A stretch of 64,000 nucleotides of DNA, taken from the NCBI GenBank assembly GCA_016185525.1, contig JACPNK010000002.1, forward strand, positions 11,616 to 75,615, read 5' to 3'. The notes under the pieces were generated by a model that searched no databases, was not told where the DNA came from, and saw only the letters and a program-made list of their open reading frames with translations. Origin of the DNA: Candidatus Yanofskybacteria bacterium (GTDB lineage Bacteria; Patescibacteriota; Minisyncoccia; 2-02-FULL-40-12; IGHO2-12-FULL-4). The number at the start of each line of letters is the position of its first letter. Positions within the stretch are counted from its first letter, which is position 1. This document shows, piece after piece, positions 13,424 through 58,060 of this stretch. Made by a program: the position numbers and the translations under genes.

Positions 13424-14407
13424 ATGTCAGAAGACGAATCCGGTGGCGGGGGAGATTTTCGCAACCTTTTCAGAGCCGGAGAAATTCTATCGTTTTTGGT
13501 TTTTGCCTTTCTCATTGTCGCTTTCTTTATATTTTTAAATCAATCTGAAGACCAGATACCAAACAAAGGATCGCCGGGAGATTTACCGTCTTACGCAAAA
13601 TTAGAAAAAGAAATAGACCTTTTGATTTTGGAAATTAGAAATAGCGGGACTCTGCCTCCGCTGGAAGACGATTTTGAGATGGATGAATCTGTTGACTTGG
13701 AGTCACAAGACTATAATATTGTCCTAGAACATGAAAAAACAAAGCAGTATCTTGAACTCGTTCTTGCAAATTTACAAAAAGATTTTTCAGAGGAGTGGAA
13801 AAACAGGGTTTTAAAACTTCGTCTTTACGACGACCGTTTTGTCGGCAGAACCAACAATGCTTTTGCTCTGCCGGCTGAAACTATTTATGTTGGTATTACC
13901 CAAATAATGTGGGTTAACAATGAAGCCGAACTGGCGGCCCTTTTGAGCCATGAAGCTAGCCACATTAAGCTTAGACATGTAGCCGAGTCCAGAAGAGTAG
14001 TTAAAAATCTTACCGTTTTTGCCCAAAAAGCCTTCCTTGCAAAGGATTTTGAAAAAGTCGTACTTTTGGGCCTAGCCGCGCAAAAGTTATTTGGCTATAA
14101 CGGGTTTGTGGGTATTCTGCCTCTAGAGTATGAAAGTGAGGCTGACAAAAATGGTCAGGCCATGCTTAGAAATAGCGGTTACGACGACCTTGCTTTGGTA
14201 GGTTCTCTTGAAAGAATTAAAAAGATGTACAACAACAACCTTTTTTCACAAATTATGCAAAAGAGGATTCGTGACCTAAAGGATAACAGCAAAAATAAAT
14301 CGGATTTAAACGGCAGAGGCAAGACTTTTATTGTTTCAAAAGAGGAAGATTTGAGGCTGATTCAAGCAACACTCCAACAATTTCTTAACGACCTTGCGCT
14401 TAAATAA
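13424..14407 (+). CDS. membrane-anchored HExxH zinc metallopeptidase-like protein (M48/M56-like)
   Basis: An N-terminal TM, LSHEASHIKLRH (HExxH) and an acidic EYESEAD block downstream. Confidence 0.45.
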   Translation: MSEDESGGGGDFRNLFRAGEILSFLVFAFLIVAFFIFLNQSEDQIPNKGSPGDLPSYAKLEKEIDLLILEIRNSGTLPPLEDDFEMDESVDLESQDYNIVLEHEKTKQYLELVLANLQKDFSEEWKNRVLKLRLYDDRFVGRTNNAFALPAETIYVGITQIMWVNNEAELAALLSHEASHIKLRHVAESRRVVKNLTVFAQKAFLAKDFEKVVLLGLAAQKLFGYNGFVGILPLEYESEADKNGQAMLRNSGYDDLALVGSLERIKKMYNNNLFSQIMQKRIRDLKDNSKNKSDLNGRGKTFIVSKEEDLRLIQATLQQFLNDLALK

Positions 14408-14480
14408 GCGCATTTTAATTTGCTAAAGTCGTTTTTTTGTAATAAAATAGGTTTTAATTAGGTAGACTATCAAATACTGT

Positions 14481-14718
14481 CGGTCTTCCAAATATTGCTT
14501 TTTCCGGACGCTCGTCCCGCTCCAGCGGCGGGACTCGCTCTTTGTGAGATGTGGATTCTGTCCAGCTTAAGAAAGCTGTCCAGACCACGCCATTGAACTT
14601 ACAGCTTATCCGTCCCTATCGGTCCGAATGGGCTGTAAGATTCAATGGCTAGCAACCTGCCTGTCGGCAGACAGGTCCACAACTCACAGAGCCTACAAAA
14701 GCAATATTTGGAAGACCG
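14481..14718. mobile_element. MITE-like element with perfect 22-bp terminal inverted repeats (cggtcttccaaatattgcttttt / aaaagcaatatttggaagaccg)
   Basis: The TIRs can be read directly from the sequence. The 195-nt interior is hairpin-rich and GC-rich and has no ORF. A 25-nt fragment of the same end recurs at 25455-25479. Confidence 0.45.
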
Positions 14719-14780
14719 TAAACTAACAATCCGCCCGTAGCCCTGCCTGCCGGCAGGCAGGTCAGTTGGCGAAGATTAGT

Positions 14781-15017
14781 ATGTTTTTTGTGTACGTTCT
14801 TAAAAGTGAAAAAGATGGCAATCTTTACATTGGTATGACCAACGACTTGAAACGTAGATTGAATGAGCATAATTGTGGCAGAAACTTGTCTACAAAATAC
14901 AGAAGACCATTTAGGTTAATATACAGTGAAAAATTAAACGACAGGGTCAAGGCTAGATATAGAGAAAAGTTTTTAAAGTCTGGCACTGGAAGAGAGTGGA
15001 TTAAAAATAACTTATAA
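14781..15017 (+). CDS. GIY-YIG nuclease domain protein (YhbQ-like, 78 aa)
   Basis: FVYVLKSEKDGNLYIGMTNDLKRRLNEHN is a GIY-YIG motif. The ATG at 14781 is preferred over the TTG at 14766 in the track. Confidence 0.7.
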   Translation: MFFVYVLKSEKDGNLYIGMTNDLKRRLNEHNCGRNLSTKYRRPFRLIYSEKLNDRVKARYREKFLKSGTGREWIKNNL

Positions 15018-15030
15018 CAATTATAACCAT

Positions 15031-15105
15031 CCGCCCGTAGCTCAGCTGGTAGAGCAACTCCCTTTTAAGGAGATGGTCGTTGGTTCGACTCCAACCGGGC
15101 GGACA
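15031..15105 (+). tRNA. tRNA-Lys (anticodon TTT), CCA not encoded
   Basis: Cloverleaf folded by hand. Acceptor ccgcccg/cgggcgg, D-stem gctc/gagc, anticodon loop cTTTTaa, T-arm gttgg-ttcgact-ccaac, discriminator A. Confidence 0.8.
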
Positions 15106-15168
15106 ATATTTAAAAGTGTTGATAAGCCGTTTGGACTTTTGGCCGGAAAGAAATAAAATGAGGTTACT

Positions 15169-15759
15169 ATGAAAAAAACTGTTTCAATATTAGTTTTGTC
15201 AGTTTTTGTTCTTTTGGCTTTACCGGTTTTGGCTGATGACGTCAGTCCGACTCCGACCCCAAGTCCTTCAAAGTCTCCACTGATGGATCGTGGAATGAAA
15301 AAAAATGAGAGAGTTCAAAAGGTAAAAGAAAAGGCTATGGAAGTAAAAGACAGAGTCAAAGAAGTAAAAGAGAAGGTAAAAGAAACTAAGGATGTCAGAA
15401 AAGAAGCCGCTTTAGAAAAAGCCAAAGAACTTAAAAGGAGGGCAACAGAAAGGGCTCTTGCTTTGAAAAGAGCGGAGTTGGCTTATAAAGAAGCGTTAAA
15501 AATGGCAAGGGACACCTATTACGCCGCTTCAAAAAAGGCAAAAGAGGATTTTGACCTGGCCAAGCAAAGAGCCAAAGAGATGAATTCTAAAGAAGCGGCC
15601 AAAGCCGCCAGAGACTCTTATCAAAGCTCTAAAAAAGCGGCGCAACAAACTTTTGAAATGGCTAAAAAAGCCGCCAGAGTCGCTTTTGAAGCCGCTAAGC
15701 AGGGCATAAAAGCTTACTATTCAACTTCTCCGGCCACAACCCCAATGCCTACTCCGTAG
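15169..15759 (+). CDS. secreted Lys/Ala/Glu-rich repetitive helical protein with Pro/Thr-rich termini
   Basis: Signal peptide, a PTPTPSPSKSP linker, degenerate KE(A/V)K heptad-like repeats and a C-terminal TSPATTPMPTP. Confidence 0.5.
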   Translation: MKKTVSILVLSVFVLLALPVLADDVSPTPTPSPSKSPLMDRGMKKNERVQKVKEKAMEVKDRVKEVKEKVKETKDVRKEAALEKAKELKRRATERALALKRAELAYKEALKMARDTYYAASKKAKEDFDLAKQRAKEMNSKEAAKAARDSYQSSKKAAQQTFEMAKKAARVAFEAAKQGIKAYYSTSPATTPMPTP

Positions 15760-15784
15760 TTTTGGCCTAATCGCATTCTAACAA

Positions 15785-15816
15785 AACACCTCCTAAGCAA
15801 AGAGGTGTTTTGTTTA
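15785..15816 (+). terminator. intrinsic terminator
   Basis: aacacctc-ctaagcaaa-gaggtgtt hairpin plus a T-run. Confidence 0.6.
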
Positions 15817-15881
15817 CTCTTCCCAATTGTTTTTTGTTTCTGTAAGATTATAGGACATATTTGCGTGGATCTATATAAACA

Positions 15882-16856
15882 ATGACCAAGAAGCTTAAAA
15901 TAGGTGTTTTCATGGGTGGGCCTTCGGTTGAACACGAAGTGTCTTTGGCTACAGGAGCTCAAATTATGGCTAACTTAGATCCGAGCAGGTACTCTGTCGT
16001 GGCGGTAAAAATTTCTAAATCCGGGCGCTGGATGGCCAATGGCAAATATGAAAATCATTTGAAAATTTTTAAGATGATTGATCTCGCTTTTTTGGCTTTG
16101 CATGGCGAAGTCGGAGAAGATGGCCGGATGCAAGGCCTTTTGGATTTTCATGGAGTGCTCTACACCGGTTCCGGCCGCGGGCCGTCTGCCTTAGCAATGG
16201 ACAAATTGCATAGCCGGGAAATTTTTAAGCTGGCGGGGATTAGCACGCCCAAGACCCTTCATCTTAAAAAAGGCGAAAATAACTCCGCGCTTATTAAATT
16301 CTTTACTTCCAAGGTGGTGAAGATGCCGGTAGTGATTAAGCCAAGGTTTTTGGGCTCATCTGTCGGGGTCCACTTGGTGGACAGCGAAAAAAAATTGTTT
16401 ACAGCTTTGGAGTCAGTCTTCAAATTAGACAAGGACGCTCTGATAGAAGAACATATCAAAGGTACCGAAGTTGCCTGTGGAGTATTGGAAAACTTTTCCA
16501 AACAAAAACATTTTGTTTTGCCTTTAACCCAGATACAGCCGGTCAGGGCTAAATTTTTTGATTACAAAGCCAAGTACCAAAAGGGAGCGTCCAAGGAAAT
16601 TACCCCCGCTCCGGTTGACGCGGGTCGTTACAAGAAGGCCCAATCAGTCGCTCTTTTAGCCCATCAGCTTTTGGGTTGCCGTAGTTATTCGCGAAGCGAT
16701 ATGATTTTACGAAACGGCGCTGTCTACCTGCTTGAAGTTAATACGCTTCCCGGATTGACGCCGACTTCATTGTTTCCCCAACAGGCTGTTGCCGCCGGTT
16801 TGAGTTTCCCTCAACTTATTGATAGAATTATTGAAAATGCGAACTCAAATTTCTGA
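15882..16856 (+). CDS. ddl: D-alanine--D-alanine ligase
   Basis: LHGEVGEDGRMQGLLD and ATP-grasp motifs, in a cell-wall gene context. Confidence 0.85.
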   Translation: MTKKLKIGVFMGGPSVEHEVSLATGAQIMANLDPSRYSVVAVKISKSGRWMANGKYENHLKIFKMIDLAFLALHGEVGEDGRMQGLLDFHGVLYTGSGRGPSALAMDKLHSREIFKLAGISTPKTLHLKKGENNSALIKFFTSKVVKMPVVIKPRFLGSSVGVHLVDSEKKLFTALESVFKLDKDALIEEHIKGTEVACGVLENFSKQKHFVLPLTQIQPVRAKFFDYKAKYQKGASKEITPAPVDAGRYKKAQSVALLAHQLLGCRSYSRSDMILRNGAVYLLEVNTLPGLTPTSLFPQQAVAAGLSFPQLIDRIIENANSNF

Positions 16857-18225
16857 AACAAAAAATAAGGCCGGTGAGACAGTCCAGCTTTTCGGCTGGG
16901 TGCATACTCGCCGAGACCACGGTAAAATTATTTTTATTGATTTAAGAGACCGGTCCGGTTTGGTTCAGGTTGTCTTTACTCCCGTTAACAAAGAGCTTTA
17001 CCAAAAAGCTGAAGCTTTGAGATCTGAATGGGTGGTAAAAATTGTCGGAAAAGTTGCCCAGCGCCCAGAGGCGATGACAAACAAAGAATTTGAAACGGGT
17101 GAGGTTGAAATTCAACCGGTGGAGCTGGAGATTTTAAATGAGTCAGAGACAGCGCCTTTTCCCATAGATGACAGCGGCTATGGTATAGACGAAGAAATTC
17201 GGCTTAAGTATCGTTACATTGATTTACGCAGGCCAAGGCTTCAAAAGAATATTAAAGTTCGCTCCGAATTTGTTAGTAAGGCCCGTCAATTTCTATTTTC
17301 CAAAGGTTTTGTTGAGATAGAAACTCCCATTCTTAGCGCGCCCACACCGGAAGGATCAAGAGATTTTGTTGTGCCTTCCCGCCTGAATCCGGGCAAGTTT
17401 TTTGCCCTGCCTCAAAGTCCACAGCAATACAAACAACTTTTGATGACTGCCGGTTTTGAAAAATATTTTCAAATCGCCCGCTGTTTTCGCGATGAAGACT
17501 TGAGAGCTGACAGGGGATTTGAGCATACTCAGATAGATTTAGAAATGAGTTTTGTGAACCAGGCAGATGTCATGGCTCTTGATGAAGAGATGGTAACCGT
17601 CATCGTTGAGTCAATGGGCTACAAAATTAAAGAGAAACCATTTCCAGTTTTTACGCATGAAAAAGCAATGAAAAAGTTTGGCGCTGATAAATTTGATTTG
17701 AGAACTGAAGAAGAAAAAAAGAGCGGAGTTTTGGCTTATGCTTGGGTTACAGATTTTCCTTTTTTTGAGAAAGACAAAGGCGGGGGATGGACTTTTACCC
17801 ACAACCCTTTTTCAATGGCAAAGCCGGAACATTTGAATTGGCTTTTGAAAGGAGAAAACATTGATAAAATTTTAACTACTCAATATGACTTGGTTTGCAA
17901 TGGTGTGGAAGTAGGCGGCGGCAGTATCCGTGCTCATAAAACAGAAATGCTTCATGCCGTTTTTAAAATTATGGGCTATGGCGAGTCGGAAATAGAGCAA
18001 AATTTTGGACACATGTTGACCGCCTTTAAATTTGGGACCCCGCCTCATGGCGGTATTGCTCATGGCGTAGAACGCAACCTCATGACCATGTTAGGCGAAG
18101 AATACTTGAGAGAAGTTCAGGCCTTCCCACAAACCAGTTCAGGCAAAACTTCGGTAATGAACGCGCCTTCAGACTTAAGCAAGGCGCAATTAAAAGAACT
18201 ATGTTTATCCGTTAAAAATGAGTAG
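16837..18225 (+). CDS. aspS: aspartate--tRNA ligase, short archaeal/eukaryal-type (class IIb)
   Basis: FRDEDLRADR motif 2 and an OB-fold N-terminus. The ATG at 16837 is preferred over the TTG at 16819. It overlaps ddl by 20 nt. Confidence 0.8.
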   Translation: MRTQISETKNKAGETVQLFGWVHTRRDHGKIIFIDLRDRSGLVQVVFTPVNKELYQKAEALRSEWVVKIVGKVAQRPEAMTNKEFETGEVEIQPVELEILNESETAPFPIDDSGYGIDEEIRLKYRYIDLRRPRLQKNIKVRSEFVSKARQFLFSKGFVEIETPILSAPTPEGSRDFVVPSRLNPGKFFALPQSPQQYKQLLMTAGFEKYFQIARCFRDEDLRADRGFEHTQIDLEMSFVNQADVMALDEEMVTVIVESMGYKIKEKPFPVFTHEKAMKKFGADKFDLRTEEEKKSGVLAYAWVTDFPFFEKDKGGGWTFTHNPFSMAKPEHLNWLLKGENIDKILTTQYDLVCNGVEVGGGSIRAHKTEMLHAVFKIMGYGESEIEQNFGHMLTAFKFGTPPHGGIAHGVERNLMTMLGEEYLREVQAFPQTSSGKTSVMNAPSDLSKAQLKELCLSVKNE

Positions 18226-19212
18226 ATGCGGCAAAAAGTCACCATTCTAACAATCTTGGTCGGAGGGTTAGTTTTTTTGAGTCTTTTTATTGTCTATGGC
18301 GATATTAAAAACAGATCCGAGCTTTCTAAAAGTCGGTTTCAAAATTTTGGCCCGGCCTTAATAAACGCTTCTCTGGCTAATGAAAATTTTAACTCCCAAA
18401 CAGGATATATTCTGCCGGTTTCCGAACCGACTTATTTTCCCATAAGAAAGCCTGATGTTGCTGAACCTTTGCTAAAAGCAAAATCTTTTTTGTTGTATGA
18501 TGTCAAAAACGCTAAAGTTCTTTTTTCTAAAGATTCTCAAAAAGCACTGTCTATTGCTTCTTTGACCAAACTGCTTACGGCAATTGTTTCATTGGAAAAT
18601 CTTTCCCCGGAGACAATTATAGAGATTGGACCGGAGTCTATGAATGTTGACCAAGAAGGAGCAGATTTTTATTTAAAAGAAAAGTTTTATTTTCAGGATT
18701 TATTCAAGGCTATGCTGGTAAAATCTTCCAATGATGCGGCTTCAGCCATAGCTCGGACTGTGGAAACGAAAACCGGCACAAGTTTCGTTGACTTGATGAA
18801 CAAAAAGGCTTTGCAAATCGGTATGAACAATTCCAGATTTCTTGATCCGTCCGGTCTGAATGATTCGGCATATTCAACAGCCGAAGACCTGTTAAAGTTG
18901 GCAAGGAACGCCAGAAGGTTTAAGGAAATTAGAGAATCTTTGGCGGAACAGACGGTAGACGTTTTTTCAACTGACAAGAAATTAAAACATCGTTTTGTCA
19001 GCACCAATAAGCTGTTCGGAGTTTTACCTGACATGGTTGGGGCTAAAACCGGCTATACAGACGGGGCTCTAGGCTGTATCATACTGGAAGAGGCTTTGTT
19101 ATCAAGCGAGACCTCTCTTATTGCAATTGTTCTGGGGTCAACAGAAAGATTTGAGGACGCCGAGAAATTAGTAAATTGGGGCAAGTCGGCTTTTAGGTGG
19201 GAAGTTAATTGA
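18226..19212 (+). CDS. D-alanyl-D-alanine carboxypeptidase (S11, PBP5-like)
   Basis: SLTKLLT (SxxK), SSND (SxN) and KTGYT (KTG). Confidence 0.7.
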   Translation: MRQKVTILTILVGGLVFLSLFIVYGDIKNRSELSKSRFQNFGPALINASLANENFNSQTGYILPVSEPTYFPIRKPDVAEPLLKAKSFLLYDVKNAKVLFSKDSQKALSIASLTKLLTAIVSLENLSPETIIEIGPESMNVDQEGADFYLKEKFYFQDLFKAMLVKSSNDAASAIARTVETKTGTSFVDLMNKKALQIGMNNSRFLDPSGLNDSAYSTAEDLLKLARNARRFKEIRESLAEQTVDVFSTDKKLKHRFVSTNKLFGVLPDMVGAKTGYTDGALGCIILEEALLSSETSLIAIVLGSTERFEDAEKLVNWGKSAFRWEVN

Positions 19213-19219
19213 TTATTTT

Positions 19220-20299
19220 ATGTACGAAGGCGCTTTTACGGTCTTCAATGTAGTCAAGATTTTTGCGGTATCCACAGTTTCTTTTTTTGTGGCTATTTTA
19301 ATTACTCCGATTTGGAGCAAAATATTGTTGAAGTACTTTCGCCCTGGCAAGGAAATAGAGCGTGGCAAAAATACCTTTTGGGGCGAAACGCCCATTTTTA
19401 ACTCTCTTCACAAAAAGAAAGAGGGAACGCCGACCATGGGAGGACTGATAATTTGGTTTACGGTTGCTGTTTTGACTGTCTTATTTTGGTATTTTTCAAA
19501 TGTTTTTGACGGGTTCTGGTCCAAAATAAATTTTCTCTCGCGCAGTCAGACCCTTTTGCCTTTGGGTTTTTTGATTTTGGCCGGCTTAATTGGAATTGTG
19601 GACGATATCTTTGGCGTAAAGCGTCGAAAGGGACTGACTCTTGGAAAACGCTTGATCCTTTTTACTTTGTTGGCCATTTTCGGCGCTTGGTGGTTTTATC
19701 ATAAATTAGGCTGGAACTTTATAAATGTACCTTTTTTGGGAGATTTTACGGTTGGTTTGTGGTATGTCCCTATTTTTATTTTGGTTATTGTGGCTACGGC
19801 TTTTTCCGCTGACATAACTGACGGTTTGGATGGTTTAAGCGGCGGGATATTTTTACTTTCTTTCAGCGCTTTGGGGGCTATCGCTTTTGTTCAGGGCCGT
19901 ACAGACTTGGTTGTTTTTATAGCGGCTATTGTCGGAGCTTTAGTGGCTTTTTTGTGGTTTAACATTTATCCGGCCAGATTTTTTATGGGCGATACCGGTG
20001 TTATGGCTTTGGGTTTTGTTTTGGGCGTTGTTGCTATGCTTACCAACACATTTCTTCTTCTCCCGATTATCTGCGTGGTTTTTGTTCTGGAATCCTTATC
20101 GGTGATTTTGCAGACGGCTTCTAAAAAGATTCGCAAAAAAAAGATTTTCTTATCTACTCCAATCCATCATCATTTTGAAGCTCTTGGCTGGCCGGAAACC
20201 CAAGTTACCATGCGTTTTTGGATGATCTCGGCAATCGGCGCAATATTGGGAATTATAATTTTCTTGGTTGACTCTAAAATACCGCCGTTATTCAAATGA
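19220..20299 (+). CDS. mraY: phospho-N-acetylmuramoyl-pentapeptide transferase
   Basis: Polytopic membrane protein with IGIVDDIFGV and other MraY signature blocks. Confidence 0.85.
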   Translation: MYEGAFTVFNVVKIFAVSTVSFFVAILITPIWSKILLKYFRPGKEIERGKNTFWGETPIFNSLHKKKEGTPTMGGLIIWFTVAVLTVLFWYFSNVFDGFWSKINFLSRSQTLLPLGFLILAGLIGIVDDIFGVKRRKGLTLGKRLILFTLLAIFGAWWFYHKLGWNFINVPFLGDFTVGLWYVPIFILVIVATAFSADITDGLDGLSGGIFLLSFSALGAIAFVQGRTDLVVFIAAIVGALVAFLWFNIYPARFFMGDTGVMALGFVLGVVAMLTNTFLLLPIICVVFVLESLSVILQTASKKIRKKKIFLSTPIHHHFEALGWPETQVTMRFWMISAIGAILGIIIFLVDSKIPPLFK

Positions 20300-21381
20300 C
20301 CCAATTGGGGAGGAATATTATTATTTTAACCTTGCTTCTGATTGTTTTTGGCTTGGTCACGCTTTCCTCTGCCGGTATCATTGACGGCCAAAAGAAATTT
20401 GGTTCAGAATACTATTATTTCAACCACCAAATACTAAACGGCATATTGCCCGGTCTTTTGCTTTTTTTTATATTTTCTAAAGTCAAATACAAATTTTGGA
20501 AAAAAATCTCTTTGCCGCTTTTAATTTTCAGTCTTGCGCTTTTGTTGGCTGTGTTTGTTACGCGTTTTGGTTTTTCGGCTAAAGGCGCAACTCGCTGGCT
20601 TAACTTCGGTTTGATAAGTTTTCAGCCTTCAGAAATTTTAAAGTTAAGCCTCATTATTTACTTTGCGGCTTGGTTTAGCGGCAGAAGCGAAAAAATCAAA
20701 AGCTGGTCTTACTCGATAGTGCCTTTCTTTGTGGTTTTGGGTTTTGTCGGACTTCTTCTGGCTCTACAGCCGGATGTTGGAACTTTGGGCATAGTCGCTC
20801 TGATAGCCTTATCATTATATTTTTTCGCCGGCGCCAAGACATCTCACTTTGGGGGGTTGATTCTTGTTTTAGCCGTTGCTTTTTTTGTTTTGGTTCAGCT
20901 CGCGCCTTACAGATTTGACAGGTTTCTGACATTTTTTAATCCGGCCTCTGATCCCCAAGGCATTTCCTACCATATAAATCAGTCTCTTATCGCTGTGGGA
21001 AGGGGCGGTTTGTGGGGAGTCGGTTTTGGCCAAAGCCAGCAAAAACTTGGTTTTTTGCCGGAACCGGTCGGTGATTCTATTTTTGCTGTTATGGCAGAAG
21101 AATTGGGCTTGGTAGGCGCCGCTTCTCTCATCACTCTCTTCTTTCTGCTTTCCTTACAGCTGGTTAAAATTACACAAAATAGCACAGACCGTTTTGGCGG
21201 ACTTTTTGCTTTAGGAATGACTGTTTGGGTGGCGAGCCAGTCCTTGATTAATATCGGGGCAATAACCGGTTTACTGCCCTTAACCGGAATTCCTTTACCG
21301 TTTGTCAGTTATGGCGGGACTTCTATTGCCACTCTTTTAGCCGGTCTTGGTATCGCCGTGAATATTGCTAAGACGACTTAA
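20296..21381 (+). CDS. ftsW: SEDS-family peptidoglycan polymerase (FtsW/RodA)
   Basis: 10-TM SEDS pattern with a conserved C-terminal block. It overlaps mraY by 4 nt. Confidence 0.8.
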   Translation: MTQLGRNIIILTLLLIVFGLVTLSSAGIIDGQKKFGSEYYYFNHQILNGILPGLLLFFIFSKVKYKFWKKISLPLLIFSLALLLAVFVTRFGFSAKGATRWLNFGLISFQPSEILKLSLIIYFAAWFSGRSEKIKSWSYSIVPFFVVLGFVGLLLALQPDVGTLGIVALIALSLYFFAGAKTSHFGGLILVLAVAFFVLVQLAPYRFDRFLTFFNPASDPQGISYHINQSLIAVGRGGLWGVGFGQSQQKLGFLPEPVGDSIFAVMAEELGLVGAASLITLFFLLSLQLVKITQNSTDRFGGLFALGMTVWVASQSLINIGAITGLLPLTGIPLPFVSYGGTSIATLLAGLGIAVNIAKTT

Positions 21382-25529: not shown

Positions 25530-26129
25530 ATGAGGGTGATCTCGTTTATCAGCGGCACAATTGAGGCTGTTTCTGACCGATCGGTTATAGTAAACACCGG
25601 CGGACTGGGCTATAGGGTCATATTGCCAGAAAGAGTTCATGGTATTTTATCAAAAGTAGGCTCACAAGTCAAGCTTTTTGTGTACACTAATTTTAACTCG
25701 CGAGAAGGGATTTTTGATTTCTACGGCTTTGAAAAGCCGGAGGAATTGGCTTTTTTTCAATTGCTCTTGACTGTTTCCGGCGTCGGGCCGAAGTCGGCGC
25801 AGGGGTTGCTTTCCTCGGTTGACTTGCAGACTTTGCAGTTGGCTATTATCAAGGGCGATGACAATTACTTGAGAAAGTTGTCGGGTGTCGGCTCTAAAAC
25901 CAGTCAGCGCATAATTTTGGAATTGAAAAATAAATTATTAGAAAAAGGTCTTGGCGTGGGCCAAGACCGTGATTTTGCTTCTGAAGGCGAGGCAATAGAC
26001 GCTTTAGTTGCTCTTGGGTACTCCGCTTATCAGGGCAGAGAAGCGCTAAAAGAGGTCTCGGCAGATGCCAAGACCTCGGAAGATAAAATCAAAGAAGCAT
26101 TAAAAATTTTAGGCAAGAGTAAAAAGTAA
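25530..26129 (+). CDS. ruvA: Holliday junction branch migration complex subunit RuvA
   Basis: OB-fold N-terminus, tandem HhH (LLTVSGVGPKSAQ / LSGVGSKTSQRI) and a C-terminal RuvB-binding domain. Confidence 0.8.
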   Translation: MRVISFISGTIEAVSDRSVIVNTGGLGYRVILPERVHGILSKVGSQVKLFVYTNFNSREGIFDFYGFEKPEELAFFQLLLTVSGVGPKSAQGLLSSVDLQTLQLAIIKGDDNYLRKLSGVGSKTSQRIILELKNKLLEKGLGVGQDRDFASEGEAIDALVALGYSAYQGREALKEVSADAKTSEDKIKEALKILGKSKK

Positions 26130-27067
26130 TGAGCTTTTTGCAATCAAAAGACTGGTTGGAATTTCAAAAATTTTTAGGGAGGTCTGTTTTTGAATATGAC
26201 AAAGAGGGAATTAAAGCGGGAATCATAAAATTGCCCGAGCCTTTTAAGAAAAGCTATCTTTATATTGCTCACGGTCCGGAGATGGATTTTAATTCAATGG
26301 CGGGGGGGTTAAAAAATCCGGTTAGTAATTTTACAGCTTGGCTTAAAGATTTGGCTGAAAAAGAAAAATCAATTTTTATTAAGGCCGAACCTCTGGCCGA
26401 CAATATCGCCCAAGTTCTTGCTGAACATAAATTCAAAAAATCTAAAAAAGAAATACAGCCACCCAAAACAGTTATTTTGGATTTGTCCAAAAGCGAAGAC
26501 GACCTGCTTAACGCGATGCATCACAAAACCAGATATAACGTTAAAGTTGCGGAAAAAAACGGGATTGTTGTCAAAGAAAGCGATGACCTTGAGTCATTCT
26601 GGAAGTTGATAAAAAAAACTTCAAAAAGAGACAAATTTTCTTCTCACTCCAAGGACTATTACGAAAAACTTCTTAAATTTTTTAACGACGGCAAGGAGAT
26701 CACATCAGGGTTGAACCTCGCTTATTATAAAGATCAGCCAGTTGCCGGACTTATTTTAATGACTCACAAAGATACTGCTTACTATTTGCACGGGGCTTCG
26801 GACTATGATTACCGTCAGTACATGGCTCCATACAAACTACACTGGGAAGTGATTAAAAAGTTACAATGGGCATCTTTGCAGAAGTCTGCAAAGATGCCCA
26901 TTGTAGGATACGATCTTTGGGGGATTGATTCCAAGAAATGGCCGGGGGTAACTCGTTTCAAATTTGGCTGGGGCGGCAAAGTTGTTGAATATCCCGGCTC
27001 TTTTGACTTGCCGATTTCTAAATTTTGGTTTTTGGCTTATAAAGTAGCGAGAAGATTAGAACCTTGA
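26129..27067 (+). CDS. FemAB-family peptidoglycan aminoacyltransferase-like protein
   Basis: The block KLHWEVIKKLQWASLQKSAKMPIVGYDLWGI resembles a FemAB/GNAT-fold C-domain. Confidence 0.45.
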   Translation: MSFLQSKDWLEFQKFLGRSVFEYDKEGIKAGIIKLPEPFKKSYLYIAHGPEMDFNSMAGGLKNPVSNFTAWLKDLAEKEKSIFIKAEPLADNIAQVLAEHKFKKSKKEIQPPKTVILDLSKSEDDLLNAMHHKTRYNVKVAEKNGIVVKESDDLESFWKLIKKTSKRDKFSSHSKDYYEKLLKFFNDGKEITSGLNLAYYKDQPVAGLILMTHKDTAYYLHGASDYDYRQYMAPYKLHWEVIKKLQWASLQKSAKMPIVGYDLWGIDSKKWPGVTRFKFGWGGKVVEYPGSFDLPISKFWFLAYKVARRLEP

Positions 27068-27132
27068 CATTTTGTTTATTTTAGATTAGGATTGTTTAAG
27101 TTGTTTTAAATTTTGTAAGTTGAGGAGAAAAT

Positions 27133-27438
27133 ATGTTACAAGATCTTCAGCAAAGAGTTACTGAACTAGAAAAACATCTTGAAGGAATGACGTCAAATTG
27201 GAATCTTTCAATGTCGAGCCATACTGTTACCCAAGGTAGGTTGCGAGCAAAGGAAGAGCAGTTTGAACTTCTTTCTAAAGAGCTGGAGAGAGTTAACTAT
27301 CATGCGGCAGAGTTAAGAGGCCAACTGAATTTAGCAAACAAAAGAGAAGAAGATTTAAAACAAGAAATCAGGGAACTTAAGAATAGATATGACGAGCTGG
27401 TTGATAAATTGTTGGACAGGGTGAATGTTGCCGGGTAA
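27133..27438 (+). CDS. small coiled-coil protein (101 aa), distantly similar to the 4827/5301 paralogs
   Basis: LANKREEDLKQEIRELKNRYDEL versus LNREEKLEKEAVELKERL. A strong terminator follows. Confidence 0.45.
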   Translation: MLQDLQQRVTELEKHLEGMTSNWNLSMSSHTVTQGRLRAKEEQFELLSKELERVNYHAAELRGQLNLANKREEDLKQEIRELKNRYDELVDKLLDRVNVAG

Positions 27439-27451
27439 GAATTGTGTTATA

Positions 27452-27484
27452 AAGTGCGCTTTGACTGGACGCACTTTTTATTTT
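27452..27484 (+). terminator. intrinsic terminator
   Basis: aagtgcg-ctttgactgga-cgcactt hairpin plus a T-run. Confidence 0.65.
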
Positions 27485-27510
27485 GCGCAAATTGTTCTAA
27501 GCTTTGACTG

Positions 27511-28791
27511 ATGTTCAGAGAAAATAAAGTGTTGGAAAAATTACTTAATTTTGGTCGAAGGATTATTCCAAAGAAATTTTTTAAAGCCGGACAGCCGGTT
27601 TATCATTGGGGACTGGCTTGGGCGGGGGCTTTAATTTACGGTTTCCCTTCGCGCTCAATGAAGGTTGTCGGAGTAACGGGGACTAAGGGCAAATCAACGA
27701 CAGTTTTTTTGATTGCTAAAATTTTTGAAGAAGCGGGATTGCCGGTGGCTATGATTGGCTCGTTGGGATACAAAATCAAAGAAAAAGAGTGGCCCAATAC
27801 TTTGAAGATGACTATGCCCGGCAGACTCAAGATTCAGCAGTTTTTATATCGGGCAAAAAATGCCGGTTGTAAATATGTGGTCTTGGAGATTACCTCCGAG
27901 GGCATAAAACAAAAAAGACATCTGGGAATTAAATTTGATTCGGCGGTCTTGACCAATATCTACAAAGAACACATTGAAAACCACGGTTCTTTTGAGAACT
28001 ATGTCAGGGCCAAGGAACGGCTTTTTAAAAAAACAAAACTCACTCACATTCTTAATGAAGATGAACCATTACTTGAAAGGTTTAAAAAGTTCAAGTCAAA
28101 CAAAAAAATTTTGTATGGCTGGCATGACTGGGAGAAGTTGGGCTTGTCCACCGAGTTGAAGGGGGATTTTAACAAATACAATATTCTGGCGGCGATAGCA
28201 GTGGCTGAAAACTATGGAATCAGTCTGGATGTTATAAAAAAAGCTTTGGCAAAAGTTCACTTAATTCCCGGAAGGATGGAGTTTGTGGATGCCGGCCAGC
28301 CTTTCAAAGTCGTGGTTGACTACGCTCATACGCCTGATAGTTTAGATATGGTTTATGATACTTTGAAAAAAGACTTGTCGCCAAACGGCAGATTGATTTG
28401 CGTGCTCGGGGCGGCGGGTGGCGGCAGGGACAAATGGAAGAGGCCGGAGTTTGGCAGAATTGCGGCAAAGTATTGCGATGAAATTGTTTTAACTAATGAA
28501 GACCCTTATGATGAAAATCCGCTTGAAATTGTAAAACAAATTGAAAGCGGATTTTCAAAAAATCCAAATGACCCGCCTACGCCGAGGCTTCAGCGGGCAG
28601 GCAAAATCCAAATGACAAAATATGAAAAAATTTTGGATCGAAAAGAGGCGATTAAAAAAGCCTTGACTTCAGCCAAAGAAGGTGATACCGTCGTGATAAC
28701 GGGCAAGGGGTCAGAAACCTCCATGGCGGTTGCCGGAGGCCAAAAGATTTCTTGGTCCGATAAGGAAGTGGTGGAAGAACTTTTAAAATAA
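27511..28791 (+). CDS. murE: Mur ligase family protein, probably UDP-MurNAc-L-Ala-D-Glu:diamino-acid ligase
   Basis: GVTGTKGKSTT P-loop, DYAHTPDSL and a Mur ligase C-domain. It is shorter than the canonical MurE. Confidence 0.7.
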   Translation: MFRENKVLEKLLNFGRRIIPKKFFKAGQPVYHWGLAWAGALIYGFPSRSMKVVGVTGTKGKSTTVFLIAKIFEEAGLPVAMIGSLGYKIKEKEWPNTLKMTMPGRLKIQQFLYRAKNAGCKYVVLEITSEGIKQKRHLGIKFDSAVLTNIYKEHIENHGSFENYVRAKERLFKKTKLTHILNEDEPLLERFKKFKSNKKILYGWHDWEKLGLSTELKGDFNKYNILAAIAVAENYGISLDVIKKALAKVHLIPGRMEFVDAGQPFKVVVDYAHTPDSLDMVYDTLKKDLSPNGRLICVLGAAGGGRDKWKRPEFGRIAAKYCDEIVLTNEDPYDENPLEIVKQIESGFSKNPNDPPTPRLQRAGKIQMTKYEKILDRKEAIKKALTSAKEGDTVVITGKGSETSMAVAGGQKISWSDKEVVEELLK

Positions 28792-28806
28792 AAAAGGAGA
28801 AAAAAG

Positions 28807-29190
28807 ATGGAAGGTTTTTTGGTGTTTCTTTTATTTTTGGGACTATTTGTGAACTTTGTGATTTTAGTGAAGGCGGCTGTCGGGGACGATGATGTTTATA
28901 ATTTAGTTTTTTCGTTTTTAGGCATTATTTTTTTAGCCATCGTTTTGGTCAAAGCTCCTTTCAGTGGAGAGCCGTCTAAGGAGATACACAACGGCGTTTA
29001 CGAGGTTTCTTTTATTCAGGAAAGAGGCCCAGACGTGGTTTTGGGTCTTGAGGGTAAGGAAAACAAAACAGAAAGAAATTTAAGAGTTTATATTTTCCCC
29101 AAAGACGCATTTTCCGGGGAGATAAAAAAAGAATCAAAACAACTGAGAGTTTCCGAGACCGGCGATTTCAGAAAACTAGTTTTGGAGTAA
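28807..29190 (+). CDS. hypothetical small membrane protein
   Basis: Two N-terminal hydrophobic helices and an SD aaaaggagaaaaaag upstream. Confidence 0.4.
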   Translation: MEGFLVFLLFLGLFVNFVILVKAAVGDDDVYNLVFSFLGIIFLAIVLVKAPFSGEPSKEIHNGVYEVSFIQERGPDVVLGLEGKENKTERNLRVYIFPKDAFSGEIKKESKQLRVSETGDFRKLVLE

Positions 29191-29217
29191 GCGGGCTAAA
29201 AACCCGCCTTTTGTTTG
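29191..29217 (+). terminator. intrinsic terminator
   Basis: gcggg-ctaaaaa-cccgc hairpin plus a T-run. Confidence 0.6.
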
Positions 29218-29283
29218 CAAAATTTTTTCAATCTGTTAACTTATTTTCATTAAGTCGGACCTTAAAAAACTAGGAGCGGCTGT

Positions 29284-29787
29284 TTGGAGACAGAGACAAT
29301 TCCGGTTTTTGTTTTTTTGGATGAGAATATTGCGAATATGGATGAAAAAATTCTGGAATTTTTTCAAGAAGAAACCGATGAAAAGTTTGATTTTTTCACC
29401 TTGTTTTTCCCGCCCTTTCCGATAAAGACAAAGCCCAGCGGTAAGAAAAAGGGCAATAAGGACTATCAGGTAATGCAACTTGCCAGACAAAGCCTCTTTT
29501 CCAACAAGCATATCTTGAAATGTTTGTTTCAGGATGCTAAACCAAGATTTGTGTTTTTAACAAGAGACCGTGATTTTTTAGAAGATGTTATGAAAGAGAA
29601 AAAAGAAGACAACCAGCAAATTGGCGGGATAATCATGCCCGCAGAAAATAAAGTTTTATTTATTGAAAAAGAATTATCCATCCCGCTTTCTATTGTTTGG
29701 GTTAAACACGGGCAAAACGTTGGAAGCAGGGCAATGTCGACGGCCGTATCGCAAACGCTAAAAAACTTTCTAGTCAAACATTCTTAA
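29284..29787 (+). CDS. hypothetical cytoplasmic protein (TTG start; alternative ATG at 29339)
   Basis: ORF with aggag 8 nt upstream of the TTG. No motifs recognised. Confidence 0.35.
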   Translation: METETIPVFVFLDENIANMDEKILEFFQEETDEKFDFFTLFFPPFPIKTKPSGKKKGNKDYQVMQLARQSLFSNKHILKCLFQDAKPRFVFLTRDRDFLEDVMKEKKEDNQQIGGIIMPAENKVLFIEKELSIPLSIVWVKHGQNVGSRAMSTAVSQTLKNFLVKHS

Positions 29788-29816
29788 TCCCGCCATTTTC
29801 GGGATTTTGTTTTTTG
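29787..29816 (+). terminator. intrinsic terminator
   Basis: atcccg-ccattttc-gggat hairpin plus a T-run. Confidence 0.6.
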
Positions 29817-29870
29817 TGTAAATTTAGTATTATTTATCAAGAGGATTACCCGCACAAATAACCGGATACC

Positions 29871-30323
29871 ATGCCATCAATAAAACAAAAGTTATTGGAC
29901 AGATCGGAAAACCTTGAACCCAAGGGGTTGTCTTGGATTTTGGTTGTTTTGCTTTTAATCTTACTGTCGGTCGCAATTACCTATTTTGGCGCCAGCAGCC
30001 CGGACTCTTTTTCATCATCAGCCAGTCCCGGAGTTTCCAGCCGGCCGCCCCGCAGTTACTCCGTGTTTTACAGCGGGGGGGTTTTTAGTCCTACCAACCT
30101 AAGGATTCACCAAGGCGATTCTGTTCAGTTTCAAAACAAAAGCTTTTTTCCGATAAAAGTGGCATCGCAGGACTCTTCCAGAAGTTCTGAAAACTTGGGT
30201 TTTCAAACGAGCAAAGAAATTCTTCCCAACCAGGAGTTTTCATATATTTTTCAGTCTGCCGGTATTTTCAATTACTACAACGAAAGAAATCCGAATGAGG
30301 CGGGTACAATCATAATTAAGTAG
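29871..30323 (+). CDS. hypothetical secreted or membrane-anchored protein, Ser-rich linker, beta-rich C-domain
   Basis: N-terminal TM and an SSSASPGVSSRPP linker. The C-domain pattern is cupredoxin-like but lacks obvious Cu ligands. Confidence 0.4.
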   Translation: MPSIKQKLLDRSENLEPKGLSWILVVLLLILLSVAITYFGASSPDSFSSSASPGVSSRPPRSYSVFYSGGVFSPTNLRIHQGDSVQFQNKSFFPIKVASQDSSRSSENLGFQTSKEILPNQEFSYIFQSAGIFNYYNERNPNEAGTIIIK

Positions 30324-30333
30324 TAAACCAACT

Positions 30334-30630
30334 ATGAAAAACCCCTTAACTCTCAAAGTGGAGTCATCGCTGGGCATAGTTCTTTTAGCTTGCCTCGCGT
30401 TGTTTTTTATCTCCTTCTTTTTTATTGTCATGAAAAATTTTAACTTGGATGTGGATGCGGAGATTTTACAGGCTAGCAACATAAAAAGAATTAAAGTAGT
30501 TTCCGGGCCGGAGAGGGAACTCATAGACGGTTGGTTGAAAGGTAACACCTCGGTGATTATTTTACCTGAAAGTGAAAGTAAATACCGGTATATTTTGCAC
30601 AAATATCCCGATAAACCTTGGGCTAAATGA
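30334..30630 (+). CDS. hypothetical small membrane protein
   Basis: One TM helix. It overlaps the next gene by 4 nt, which suggests translational coupling. Confidence 0.35.
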   Translation: MKNPLTLKVESSLGIVLLACLALFFISFFFIVMKNFNLDVDAEILQASNIKRIKVVSGPERELIDGWLKGNTSVIILPESESKYRYILHKYPDKPWAK

Positions 30631-31445
30631 TTCTAAAGGGTTTAATTTTATTTGCATCAGCGCAGATTTTGGGGCTTTTAACGGCCCAGCGTTATTTGTC
30701 TGCTTTGCAGTCTGCCAATTTGTCTCTTCCCGGTTTGAAGTTTTCTTTCTGGGATATTTTTGTTTCTTCCGCGATACTTTTGATTTTTATTTTTTTTGTT
30801 TTCAGGCAAGGCAGGCCAAGCCGGATTTTTTTTAAAATTTTTCTTTGGCTGGTTATTTTTAGCGGTTCGCAGATAGTTTTTTCTGTTTTTCTTTCACCGA
30901 CAGTTGCCTTGATTGTGTTTGTTTTGTTTTTGATCTTAGTTTTAGCGATACCTAGAGTTGCGATTCAAAATTTGGCTGTGATTTTAGGCATTACTGGCAT
31001 TAGTTCTATGCTGGGCCTTAGCCTCACACCCATGACGGCGGTTATACTTTTAGCTTTGTTTTCCGTTTATGACATTATTGCCGTGTATTTTACCGGACAT
31101 ATGATAAAAATGGCCGAGAATATGATCCAGTCAAAGGCAATTTTTGGGCTAATCATTCCAAACAAGTTTTCAGATTTTAAAGAAAAAACTGGGAAGATGA
31201 GGCTGGGAGAACAATTCATGATCTTGGGAAGCGGGGATGTGGCCCTGCCTTTAATTTTAGTTTCCTCACTTGTCAGGGTTTCTTTGTCGCAGGCTTGGCT
31301 AGTGGCGGGTTTTGCTGTTGTTGGTTTTGTCGTTACCCATCTTTTATTTGCAAATCAAAAAGAAAGAAGGCCGATGGCCGCTTTGCCGCCCATTGCGGCA
31401 ATGTCAATTTTAGGATATTTGATTACCAACTTTTTTATATGGTGA
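30627..31445 (+). CDS. presenilin/signal-peptide-peptidase-like intramembrane aspartyl protease (A22 family-like)
   Basis: Polytopic membrane protein with LFSVYDIIAVYFTGHMIKMAE (YD motif followed by HM...AE as in archaeal PSH), MILGSGDVALPL (GxGD) and AALPPIA (PAL-like) in the canonical order. Confidence 0.6.
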   Translation: MILKGLILFASAQILGLLTAQRYLSALQSANLSLPGLKFSFWDIFVSSAILLIFIFFVFRQGRPSRIFFKIFLWLVIFSGSQIVFSVFLSPTVALIVFVLFLILVLAIPRVAIQNLAVILGITGISSMLGLSLTPMTAVILLALFSVYDIIAVYFTGHMIKMAENMIQSKAIFGLIIPNKFSDFKEKTGKMRLGEQFMILGSGDVALPLILVSSLVRVSLSQAWLVAGFAVVGFVVTHLLFANQKERRPMAALPPIAAMSILGYLITNFFIW

Positions 31446-31453
31446 CTTACCAA

Positions 31454-31613
31454 AGCACAGCAGATACAGTCTTTGAGGTCGCTGTGAGCCTGCGGTTTGC
31501 TTGGTTGGCTGGAGTATAATTATTCTGTAACTCCAGCCAAAACCCAGACGAACAGCGAGTGAGTCTGCCGCTGGAGCAGACGAAGGTACCGAAAAGACTG
31601 TATCCGCGAAGCT
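31454..31613 (-). repeat. structured repeat family B, copy 3 (inverted orientation)
   Basis: Its reverse complement aligns along the whole length with the copies at 55001 and 25271. Confidence 0.6.
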
Positions 31614-31630
31614 TTGCTGGGACAGCTTTT

Positions 31631-33013
31631 ATGAAAATAACTTTTTTTGGCGGGGCAATGTCGGTGACGGGAGCAAATTATTTGCTTGATTTCGGCTCCA
31701 AAAAAATTTTAGTTGACTGCGGGCTTTTTCAAGGTTCAAAATACGCGGAAGAGTTGAACTACTCTGATTTTAAATACGATCCCAAGACGATTGACTTTGT
31801 TTTTTTGACCCACAGCCACACTGACCACATCGGCAGACTTCCCAAACTTTACAGGGAGGGTTTTAGGGGCAAGGTTTTTACCACCAAACCGACAAAAGAT
31901 TTGATGGCAAGGGCTTTTCCTGATAATTGGAGGCTGGTGGCCGAAGAAGCTAAAAAAGACAACCATGAACCTCTTTACGAAATTGAAGATATTGAGGCGG
32001 TAATGGAACTGGTCGAGGGCGTTGATTATTACCAGAGGATTAAGATATCAGAAGATGTTGCCGTTACTTTTTTAAACGCCGGCCACATTCTTGGTTCGGC
32101 AATAATTTGTTTTGATTATAAAGAAAGCGGCGAAACCGAGAAGATTTATTTTAGCGGTGACTTGGGCAATTCGCCTTCACTTCTTTTGCCGGATAAAGAT
32201 TTTGTCAAAGATGCCGGCTATGTAGTGACCGAGTCGGCTTACGGAAGCAGAGTCCACGAAGATGTTGACCAAAGAAGTAAAGTTTTCAGAGAGGTTGTTG
32301 AGCATGTTATTCATAGCGGCGGCACTCTGATGATTCCGTCATTTGCCATTGAAAGGACGCAGGAGATGCTTTTTGAAATAAACAAACTTTTGAATACCGG
32401 TGTTATTCCCCAACTGCCGGTTTTTATTGACAGTCCTTTGGCGGCTAAAATGACCGAAGTTTACGCTCAATACCCGGATTATTTAAAAAAAGAAGCGCAC
32501 CAGTTCGGAAAAAATATTTTTAACTTTCCGAGTCTGCGCTACACCGAAACTACAGCGGATTCAAAAAACATAAACGACGTGCCGTCGCCAAAAATTATCA
32601 TTGCCGGTTCGGGGATGTCAAACGGCGGCCGAATTTTGCATCATGAACGAAGATATCTTTCCGACCCGAACAGCGCTATTGTTTTTGTCGGCTACCAAGT
32701 TGAAGGCAGTTTGGGCCGGAAAATTTTGGACAGTTCGACGGGCTCACTACGAGTCGGCCAGACGGAAGTCAAAATTTTCGGAGAAAATATCCCGGTCCGC
32801 TGTTTGGTCAAGGGTATTGGCGGTTACTCCGCTCATGCCGACCAATTGGCGCTGACCGAATGGGTTCGCAGGGCCAATCAGGCAAAGAAACTCAAGAAAG
32901 TTTTTGTAGTTCAAGGCGAAGAAAGCTCGGCTAAAGCGCTGACAGAAATTATCAAAAGCCGAGTTCATGTTGACACGATTGTGCCTATACCCGAAGAAGA
33001 GTTTGAATTATAA
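31631..33013 (+). CDS. MBL-fold beta-CASP ribonuclease (RNase J/CPSF-like)
   Basis: HSHTDHIGRLP (HxHxDH) followed by beta-CASP and C-terminal motifs. The start is moved to MKITFFGG because the track's N-terminal 24 codons are repeat-derived. Confidence 0.7.
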   Translation: MKITFFGGAMSVTGANYLLDFGSKKILVDCGLFQGSKYAEELNYSDFKYDPKTIDFVFLTHSHTDHIGRLPKLYREGFRGKVFTTKPTKDLMARAFPDNWRLVAEEAKKDNHEPLYEIEDIEAVMELVEGVDYYQRIKISEDVAVTFLNAGHILGSAIICFDYKESGETEKIYFSGDLGNSPSLLLPDKDFVKDAGYVVTESAYGSRVHEDVDQRSKVFREVVEHVIHSGGTLMIPSFAIERTQEMLFEINKLLNTGVIPQLPVFIDSPLAAKMTEVYAQYPDYLKKEAHQFGKNIFNFPSLRYTETTADSKNINDVPSPKIIIAGSGMSNGGRILHHERRYLSDPNSAIVFVGYQVEGSLGRKILDSSTGSLRVGQTEVKIFGENIPVRCLVKGIGGYSAHADQLALTEWVRRANQAKKLKKVFVVQGEESSAKALTEIIKSRVHVDTIVPIPEEEFEL

Positions 33014-57642: not shown

Positions 57643-57706
57643 GAGTGGGCTGGCTTGTAAGTTGTATTGCAAGCAAAGATGCTGTGCCAGCCCACTCACC
57701 TTTTTT
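57643..57706 (+). terminator. strong intrinsic terminator (12-bp GC-rich stem gagtgggctggc/gccagcccactc plus TTTTTT)
   Basis: Read directly from the sequence. Confidence 0.65.
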
Positions 57707-57982
57707 AAAATAAAGTCTTTCAGAAATAGTTCACAAAAATTTGCGAGTTATTTCTGTGAGACTGGTAATCGTCTAAAGGATAGGGCACCTCTTTCTGACT
57801 GAGCGGTCTTTGGGGGAAAAACCTGTTCGATTCAGGTAGCCAGTCTCACACTTCGCAAAATGTTTCTAAGTTATTGGAAATATTTTGCGGAGTGGGACGG
57901 CGACGTACTACAGGCGAAGGCGCATCACCCAAGGCCCTGTCGTAAGCAAACGCCTCCCCGCTCCGCAGTTAGTATTATTACG

Positions 57983-58018
57983 GCCCTATTGGAAACCCCG
58001 ATAGGGCTTTTTTCTTTT
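57983..58018 (+). terminator. intrinsic terminator (gccctat-tggaaaccccg-atagggc plus TTTTTT)
   Basis: Read directly from the sequence. Confidence 0.65.
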
Positions 58019-58060
58019 GCATAATTTCGGGATTTTGTTTAGAGTAACAAAAAAGCCCAA

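Follow-up and report, generated by a model that had tools for sequence, protein, structure and literature searches.

A PSH-like intramembrane aspartyl protease and its conserved membrane-protein neighbours in Candidatus Yanofskybacteria

A 64,000-nucleotide stretch of the genome of a Candidatus Yanofskybacteria bacterium (contig JACPNK010000002.1; hereafter the window) encodes on its forward strand a GxGD intramembrane aspartyl protease of the presenilin/signal peptide peptidase (SPP) type (30627 to 31445). The 272-aa product has nine predicted transmembrane helices and is closest to the archaeal presenilin homologue PSH, an assignment supported by hidden Markov model (HMM) searches, by sequence matches to solved structures in the PDB, and by comparison of an AlphaFold model with known folds using Foldseek. 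The gene very likely encodes a stand-alone, catalytically competent member of the presenilin/SPP superfamily that is vertically inherited and probably serves a housekeeping role in clearance. NCBI records the identical sequence under Candidatus Yanofskybacteria bacterium as hypothetical protein HYX21_00485. Because an in-frame TAA stop lies immediately 5' of the ATG at 30627, the gene has no other possible start.

Family Assignment and Predicted Fold

The only Pfam family matched by the protease is PF06550 ("SPP"; MEROPS A22), at 72.3 bits against a cut-off of 23.9 (E = 6.2e-20), with the match extending over residues 54 to 269 and over profile positions 48 to 279 of 283. An initial annotation, read from the sequence alone, had proposed a presenilin/SPP-type GxGD protease nearest to PSH and had suggested the Presenilin and Peptidase_A22B (PF04258) models as a check; membership of the A22 family was recovered through PF06550, whereas neither of the two other models matched the window protease at E ≤ 1. 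PF04258 is recorded beside PF06550 in some close homologues from the Candidate Phyla Radiation (CPR). The NCBIfam model for the archaeal PSH equivalog, NF041679 (IMP_arch_presen), gave 91.3 bits (E = 7.5e-26) and its cut-off of 125 was not reached; judged by this score, the protease is related to the archaeal PSH equivalog group but falls outside it as NCBI defines it. The type IV prepilin/preflagellin peptidases (A24) were also considered and were rejected, the protease having no Peptidase_A24 match and the small neighbouring membrane protein g4, described below, lacking the prepilin-type leader motif.

A sequence search of the PDB retrieved PSH (4hyc, E = 6.1e-16; also 4hyd, 4hyg and 4y6k), with all three motif segments of the family aligned. 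The AlphaFold model, built from a 73-sequence alignment, is of high confidence (predicted local distance difference test, pLDDT, 93.6; predicted template modelling score, pTM, 0.90) and contains nine membrane helices. Within it, D149 lies inside helix 6 (residues 135 to 156), while D204 opens helix 7 (residues 202 to 215) right behind a short β-strand (residues 197 to 201); two short strands flank the helix 6–7 loop, and helix 9 spans residues 253 to 271. Foldseek placed PSH (4y6k, 4hyg, 4hyc) first among the PDB matches to this model, followed by presenilin-1 in γ-secretase and by SPPL2a, at a probability of 1.00 and with query-length-normalised TM-scores of 0.60–0.67, and unrelated folds appeared only at E > 0.5. 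The proposal of a PSH-like protease is therefore borne out by HMM, by solved-structure sequence match and by fold. With an A22 assignment in hand and both YD and GxGD aspartates on neighbouring helices, the family call stands. The protease is probably active.

Comparison with characterized members of the superfamily places PSH, also known as MCMJR1, from the archaeon Methanoculleus marisnigri, as the nearest counterpart. The two proteins share PF06550, the nine-helix fold and the motifs, and are alike in size (272 aa in the window, 301 aa for PSH) and in having a short helix 6–7 loop; endoproteolysis is therefore not expected to be needed. They differ in that the window protease belongs to a bacterial (CPR) host, is 22–26% identical to PSH in structural alignments, has GSGD and AALPP in place of GMGD and AGLPP, and is accompanied by conserved neighbours, g3 and g4, that are specific to the bacterial lineage. 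In vitro, PSH is active by itself; the YD, GxGD and PAL motifs are its defining features (PMC2947513).

Human presenilin-1 of γ-secretase (6iyc, 7c9i) resembles the window protease in fold (query-length-normalised TM-score ~0.66), in its catalytic motifs, in the predicted cytoplasmic location of the N-terminus and helix 6–7 loop, and in the short β-strands that flank this loop in the model. However, sequence identity is 16–17%, the Pfam Presenilin match is missing, and the window protease lacks the long cytosolic loop, its helix 6–7 loop being ~44 residues; no nicastrin, APH-1 or PEN-2 domain was found among the neighbouring genes of the 64-kb window. The SPP and SPP-like proteases (A22B; human SPPL2a, 9k92) are stand-alone GxGD proteases of the same fold, and their housekeeping task of clearing what exported proteins leave behind in the membrane is the one proposed here for the window protease, which differs from them in having no PF04258 match and in a predicted orientation opposite to that described for SPP (PMC2947513).

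Catalytic Motifs and Active-Site Conservation

The three motifs that define the family occur in the expected order, and the positions read for them in the initial annotation were confirmed. They align residue for residue with the corresponding segments of solved PSH, and the family match (PF06550, 4hyc) is well outside chance expectation. The YD motif, Y148 and D149 (31068 to 31073, forward strand, as are all features located below), lies in the segment SVYDIIAVYFTGHMIKMAE (31062 to 31118) and aligns with the YD of PSH, identifying D149 of helix 6 as the first catalytic aspartate. The GSGD motif, G201 to D204 (31227 to 31238), lies in ILGSGDV (31221 to 31241) and aligns with GMGD of PSH, with D204 as the second catalytic aspartate. 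The equivalent of the PAL motif is AALPP (residues 251 to 255; 31377 to 31391), contained in PMAALPPIA (31371 to 31397), which precedes helix 9 and aligns with AGLPP of PSH. In the clade of the window protease the first proline of the canonical PALP is replaced by alanine; most other CPR relatives carry PALPP where the window protease has AALPP.

Across 139 diverse relatives, with identities as low as 29%, residues Y148, D149, V153, G201, G203, D204, G233 and P254 are invariant, and conservation is 90% or higher at A252, L253 and P255. The YD pair is also invariant across the 73 close relatives. This invariance of the catalytic residues points to selection on catalysis.

Predicted Membrane Orientation

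Orientation was predicted by the positive-inside rule, with lysine and arginine residues counted for each loop and averaged over 73 sequences. One side of the membrane collects a mean of 13.5 positive charges (N-terminus 1.75, loop 2 2.73, loop 4 0.70, loop 6 5.51 and loop 8 2.82) and the other 1.6 (loop 1 0.74, loop 3 0.04, loop 5 0.03, loop 7 0.75 and C-terminus 0.07). The protease is accordingly predicted to be N-in/C-out, with a cytoplasmic N-terminus, helix 6–7 loop and loop before helix 9, which would be the presenilin type of orientation and the inverse of that of SPP. In eukaryotes, presenilin cleaves type I (N-out) substrates and SPP cleaves type II (N-in) substrates (PMC2947513).

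Distribution and Inheritance in the CPR

A HMMER search of 1.84 billion representatives clustered at 50% identity returned 946 relatives of the protease at E ≤ 1e-3, of which 361 reached E ≤ 1e-10. Several relatives carry NCBI or JGI names such as "presenilin family intramembrane aspartyl protease" and "presenilin-like A22 family membrane protease"; the identification of a presenilin-type protease in the CPR is therefore correct but not new, the family being already named there in databases. Searches of a literature library for presenilin in CPR or Patescibacteria found no such report, the matches being gut-microbiome and Alzheimer papers or otherwise irrelevant.

The close relatives were collected by matching two peptide patterns, taken from the clade of the window protease, against a set in which each GTDB species is represented by one genome. 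This yielded 74 loci, nearly all labelled Yanofskybacteria, Paceibacterota, Parcubacteria or Patescibacteria; records labelled Saccharibacteria show an identical gene order around the protease. To our knowledge, a presenilin-type gene is rare among well-studied bacteria. The view that such proteases are sparse in bacteria, expressed in the initial annotation, nevertheless fails for the CPR lineage, where 74 species-level genomes carry the gene and relatives are already annotated.

Gene order in nearly all of the 74 loci is ruvA–femAB–Mur ligase–(g1)–(g2)–g3–(g4)–protease–RNase J, where g1 to g4 denote the four short genes that precede the protease in the window, and this order is kept down to ~40% protease identity. 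A backbone of Mur ligase, protease and LDcluster4–MgtC recurs in relatives of ~30–40% identity. The presence of this backbone in both the window and distant relatives argues for long vertical inheritance, and for g1 to g4 and RNase J being lineage-specific insertions into it. The protease gene is vertically inherited and conserved in Candidatus Yanofskybacteria and related CPR bacteria.

Other contexts were found among homologues of ~30–37% identity and in 80 metagenome loci (L087 to L166) recovered with a 17-sequence subfamily alignment. In one group the protease lies within the spc ribosomal operon, in the order L15–SecY–(76–113 aa soluble open reading frame)–protease–Adk–Map. This placement was seen in L078, L081, L083, L084 (with an insertion), L085 and L086, and again in L087, L090 and L093, and L089 carries secY, the small open reading frame and the protease but ends ahead of adk. 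In one broad branch of the tree, to which Candidatus Uhrbacteria belongs, each of the six contexts looked up was of this secY type. Examples are the protease at L085:3501-4343 and the small open reading frames at L085:3278-3508 and L081:3654-3995; compared with the profiles of g3 and g4, the small proteins encoded in this interval proved unrelated, and they match no Pfam family.

In a second group, comprising 26 of the 80 metagenome loci, the protease is followed by a convergent radical-SAM gene, accompanied in 16 of the 26 by a methyltransferase gene, often with a Mur ligase upstream and LDcluster4/MgtC downstream (for example L114:1209-5843; also L079 and L080). Homologues in archaeal contexts (L082, 4001 to 4819; L117; L139) stand with Cdc6/Orc1, metallophosphatase, XPF and Hef-like helicase genes, joined in L082 by PolD DP2 and LonB. 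These are ~32–39% identical to the window protease, a closeness similar to that of other CPR lineages.

Conserved Upstream Genes and the Transcription Unit

Four open reading frames lie upstream of the protease gene on the same strand, as initially annotated. The first, g1 (28807 to 29190), encodes a 127-aa protein with two N-terminal hydrophobic helices by hydropathy and has no Pfam or NCBIfam match. The second, g2 (29284 to 29787), begins with TTG and encodes a 167-aa soluble protein that has no hydrophobic segment and matches no Pfam family above its cut-off. These are followed by g3 (29871 to 30323), encoding a 150-aa membrane-anchored protein with a cupredoxin fold, recognized by family profile and Pfam, and by g4 (30334 to 30630), encoding a 98-aa single-pass membrane protein characterized by alignments, an AlphaFold model and charge bias.

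The four genes and the protease gene had been described as an operon of five genes joined by 4-nt overlaps, a description that holds for its last part only. A 4-nt overlap (ATGA, 30627 to 30630) joins the g4 stop to the protease start, but the remaining gaps are 93 nt (g1–g2), 83 nt (g2–g3) and 10 nt (g3–g4). Terminator-like hairpins follow directly after the g1 stop (GCGGGCTAAAAACCCGC with a T-rich tail, 29191 to 29207) and the g2 stop (AATCCCGCCATTTTCGGGATT then TTGTTTTTTG, 29786 to 29806), and a transcription unit of g3, g4 and the protease, rather than of all five genes, is therefore likely; g1 and g2 probably lie outside it. A scan of 28700 to 31700 against Rfam gave nothing credible.

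Conservation of the upstream block across related genomes, proposed earlier as a check, likewise divides it. Among the 74 loci, g3 was matched in 69, RNase J in 65, the Mur ligase in 59 and g4 in 38, but g1 in only 8 and g2 in only 6, the matches to g2 being confined to the closest relatives. Of the 71 loci with sufficient upstream sequence, 68 have g3 immediately 5' of the protease. Two arrangements occur: in about half of the loci g3 adjoins the protease, separated from it by -4 to ~25 nt, and in the rest g4 intervenes. The end of g4 overlaps the start of the protease in the window, as it does in L002, L020, L035, L049 and L050. The conserved tight core is therefore g3–(g4)–protease. Three fully flanked loci of the Yanofskybacteria type are missing g3 (L039:7201-7983, L056:7205-7984 and L068:6692-7987). 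In L039 and L056 a single-pass protein, FtsQ-like by our own reading of its sequence, is encoded directly upstream of the protease, and in L068 the Mur ligase takes this place.

The g3 protein consists of a cytoplasmic N-terminal tail, a transmembrane helix (~residues 20–40), a Ser-rich linker and an extracytoplasmic cupredoxin-fold domain (residues 61–150). Its family profile matches the blue copper protein 5fc9 (E = 1.1e-8) as well as plastocyanins and amicyanins (E up to 1e-4), and Pfam Cupredoxin_1 matches 39 of 56 family members; the window protein itself scores 19.4 bits, below the cut-off of 27. All 763 named relatives belong to the same CPR group, and JGI labels a few of them "plastocyanin". 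Although the cupredoxin β-sandwich is homologous to that of the small blue copper proteins (Nitrosopumilus 5fc9, plastocyanin, amicyanin), g3 differs from them in being tethered by an N-terminal helix and Ser-rich linker and in lacking the copper ligand set. The window protein has no Cys and one His, and the His, Cys, His and Met of a type-1 copper site are absent, the aligned ligand positions being unconserved in the family. Many g3 relatives carry the His-rich motifs SDPHPxH(N/D) and YHN (L022:7214-7702, L029:7159-7647, L043:7501-7947), which might form a non-canonical metal site; the window g3 has lost these motifs and reads ASQDSSRSSEN and YYN at the corresponding places.

The g4 protein is a lineage-restricted small membrane protein. 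It opens with the motif M(K/R)NPLTxx(V/I)ES, in which E10 is invariant, followed by a transmembrane helix and a small two-helix C-terminal part, and its N-terminal motif and transmembrane helix are its best-conserved portion, retained by themselves in truncated versions of 52–55 aa. None of its 213 relatives has a precomputed Pfam domain and every named one is from the CPR; the window g4 has no Pfam match above cut-off. Its AlphaFold model, a long helix with two short ones, is of modest confidence (pLDDT 74) and has no fold match in the PDB. The possibility that g4 is a prepilin-type substrate was considered and rejected, since its N-terminus, M(K/R)NPLTxxVES, has no Gly-Phe cleavage motif of the G|FTLxE leader type.

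By charge bias, both g3 and g4 are predicted to be N-in/C-out. The idea that the upstream genes encode substrates or partners of the protease was part of the initial annotation. Since g3 and g4 are N-in and the protease is presenilin-oriented in these predictions, the orientation speaks against the neighbours as substrates, and it is more probable that g3 and g4 are envelope proteins co-expressed with the protease, or its partners, than that they are its canonical substrates; a partner role is possible.

Surrounding Genes and Features

Housekeeping genes of bacterial type occupy the window, and those near the protease encode UvrB, RuvA, a FemAB-family protein, a Mur ligase, a β-CASP RNase, a SLOG/LOG-like protein, Lon and MgtC. 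The surroundings are rich in cell-wall genes (13424 to 21381 and 26129 to 28791), with an M48 peptidase, Ddl, a D-Ala-D-Ala carboxypeptidase, FtsW/RodA, a FemAB-family protein and a Mur ligase, and a glycosyl transferase family 4 (MraY-like) protein is also among those upstream. Past the protease stop, a perfect 11-bp inverted repeat (TTGGCTGGAGT ... ACTCCAGCCAA, 31503 to 31541), without a T-tail, sits in a stably folding 115-nt spacer (z = -3.66) ahead of the β-CASP RNase gene, for which the ATG at 31631 is the likely start. Further downstream, 1.65 kb (56414 to 58060) contains no convincing open reading frame or Rfam family and includes a long hairpin at ~56654 to 56748. Directly following it is a gene of the 23S rRNA intervening-sequence protein family (PF05635; 58061 to 58447); there is no rRNA in the window.

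Proposed Function and Alternative Explanations

In the function proposed here, D149 and D204 would activate water within the membrane to cleave a substrate helix entering from the side, as expected from the family. Like PSH, the protease would cleave inside transmembrane helices without partner subunits or self-cleavage. Its most likely role would be the housekeeping clearance of membrane-embedded peptide remnants, or of single-pass proteins, left by export. This link to export is suggested by the secY placement in other CPR genomes together with the listing of the archaeal family as a predicted, unproven signal peptide peptidase candidate (PMC8305020). In reviews, the Haloferax homologue is given no known target, and its function is presented as predicted (PMC9263693, PMC8305020). 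In the Yanofskybacteria lineage, the gene would in addition be co-transcribed with those of two lineage-specific exported membrane proteins, g3 and often g4.

Several observations weigh against this account. The link to secY comes from a different CPR lineage than that of the window genome, and there is no secY within the 64-kb window. Liberated signal peptides are N-in and by the eukaryotic rule suit the orientation of SPP (PMC2947513). Clearance of signal peptides is accordingly the weakest step of the housekeeping proposal, and the predicted presenilin orientation would be better suited to remnants that are N-out, for example C-terminal anchor stubs. Aspartate-dependent cleavage by the protease is deduced solely from its invariant catalytic residues, and a score below the NF041679 cut-off (91 against 125 bits) marks a diverged subfamily. 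Moreover, the retention of gene order in CPR genomes, which are small, may be a matter of inheritance and not of function.

A dedicated processing enzyme is one alternative, in which the protease would cleave g3, g4 or both, releasing or maturing the cupredoxin domain or trimming the N-terminal juxtamembrane motif of g4. The position of g3 directly upstream in nearly all loci, with the short gaps seen where g4 is absent, speaks for such a role, as do the overlap of g4 with the protease start in the window and five other loci and the peak of g4 conservation at its N-terminal motif and helix, which are all that the truncated versions keep. However, g3 and g4 are predicted to be N-in/C-out, whereas the presenilin orientation is paired with N-out substrates in eukaryotes (PMC2947513). 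The protease family is also much wider than its neighbours, with other CPR lineages and archaea having the protease without g3 or g4, and g3 is missing from the three Yanofskybacteria-type loci noted above. Dedicated processing of the neighbours is thus unlikely.

One or both of these neighbours could instead be accessory subunits, non-catalytic partners that bind the enzyme and gate or recruit its substrates, in a minimal bacterial counterpart of the multi-subunit γ-secretase. Their tight and often overlapping arrangement is kept to ~40% protease identity, both are single-pass proteins with domains that would face the substrate-entry side of the enzyme, and the lost copper ligands of the g3 domain fit a binding rather than a redox role. 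Nevertheless PSH works alone in vitro (PMC2947513), g4 is absent from about half of the loci and g3 from other lineages, and the accessory-subunit model appears very doubtful.

Horizontal transfer had been raised in the initial annotation as a matter for phylogenetic analysis; recent acquisition from archaea, with a foreign, archaeal-type gene inserted into a bacterial genome, is a further alternative. The best solved relative of the protease is indeed archaeal, and homologues of ~32% identity stand in archaeal contexts (L082, L117, L139). However, the gene occupies the same position in 74 species-level CPR genomes and its composition matches that of the window (GC content 0.39 for the gene, 0.41 for the window), and a neighbour-joining tree of 139 representatives is star-like, with few labelled tips and with the window clade not nested within an archaeal clade. 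No sign of recent transfer was seen; conserved position and composition exclude it for practical purposes, and it is judged highly improbable. Ancient transfer may have occurred in one direction or the other between archaea and the CPR. A non-proteolytic relic, in which the fold is retained as a scaffold or ion-leak pathway along the lines of non-proteolytic roles proposed for eukaryotic presenilins, can be given almost no credence, as nothing observed speaks for it and both aspartates, the GxGD glycines, the YD tyrosine and the PAL-type proline are invariant in the 139 relatives.

Implications

Prokaryotic presenilin homologues serve as simple models of γ-secretase, and their natural role is unsettled. 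A bolder proposal, and one distinctly unlikely to be right, is that the presenilin-oriented protease of the CPR is a core partner of Sec export that in Yanofskybacteria forms a small complex with g3 and g4. If this were true, the complex would be a minimal bacterial counterpart of γ-secretase, and in g3 or g4 a natural partner or substrate would have been identified for the first time for a presenilin homologue of prokaryotes.

The locus adds no new type of enzyme; it presents the PSH-like family as conserved and vertically inherited in a large group of bacteria with small genomes. It also provides two testable leads, the placement of the gene between secY and adk in one lineage and the tight module with two membrane proteins in another, and either lead could guide a first search for the native substrates or partners of these proteases.

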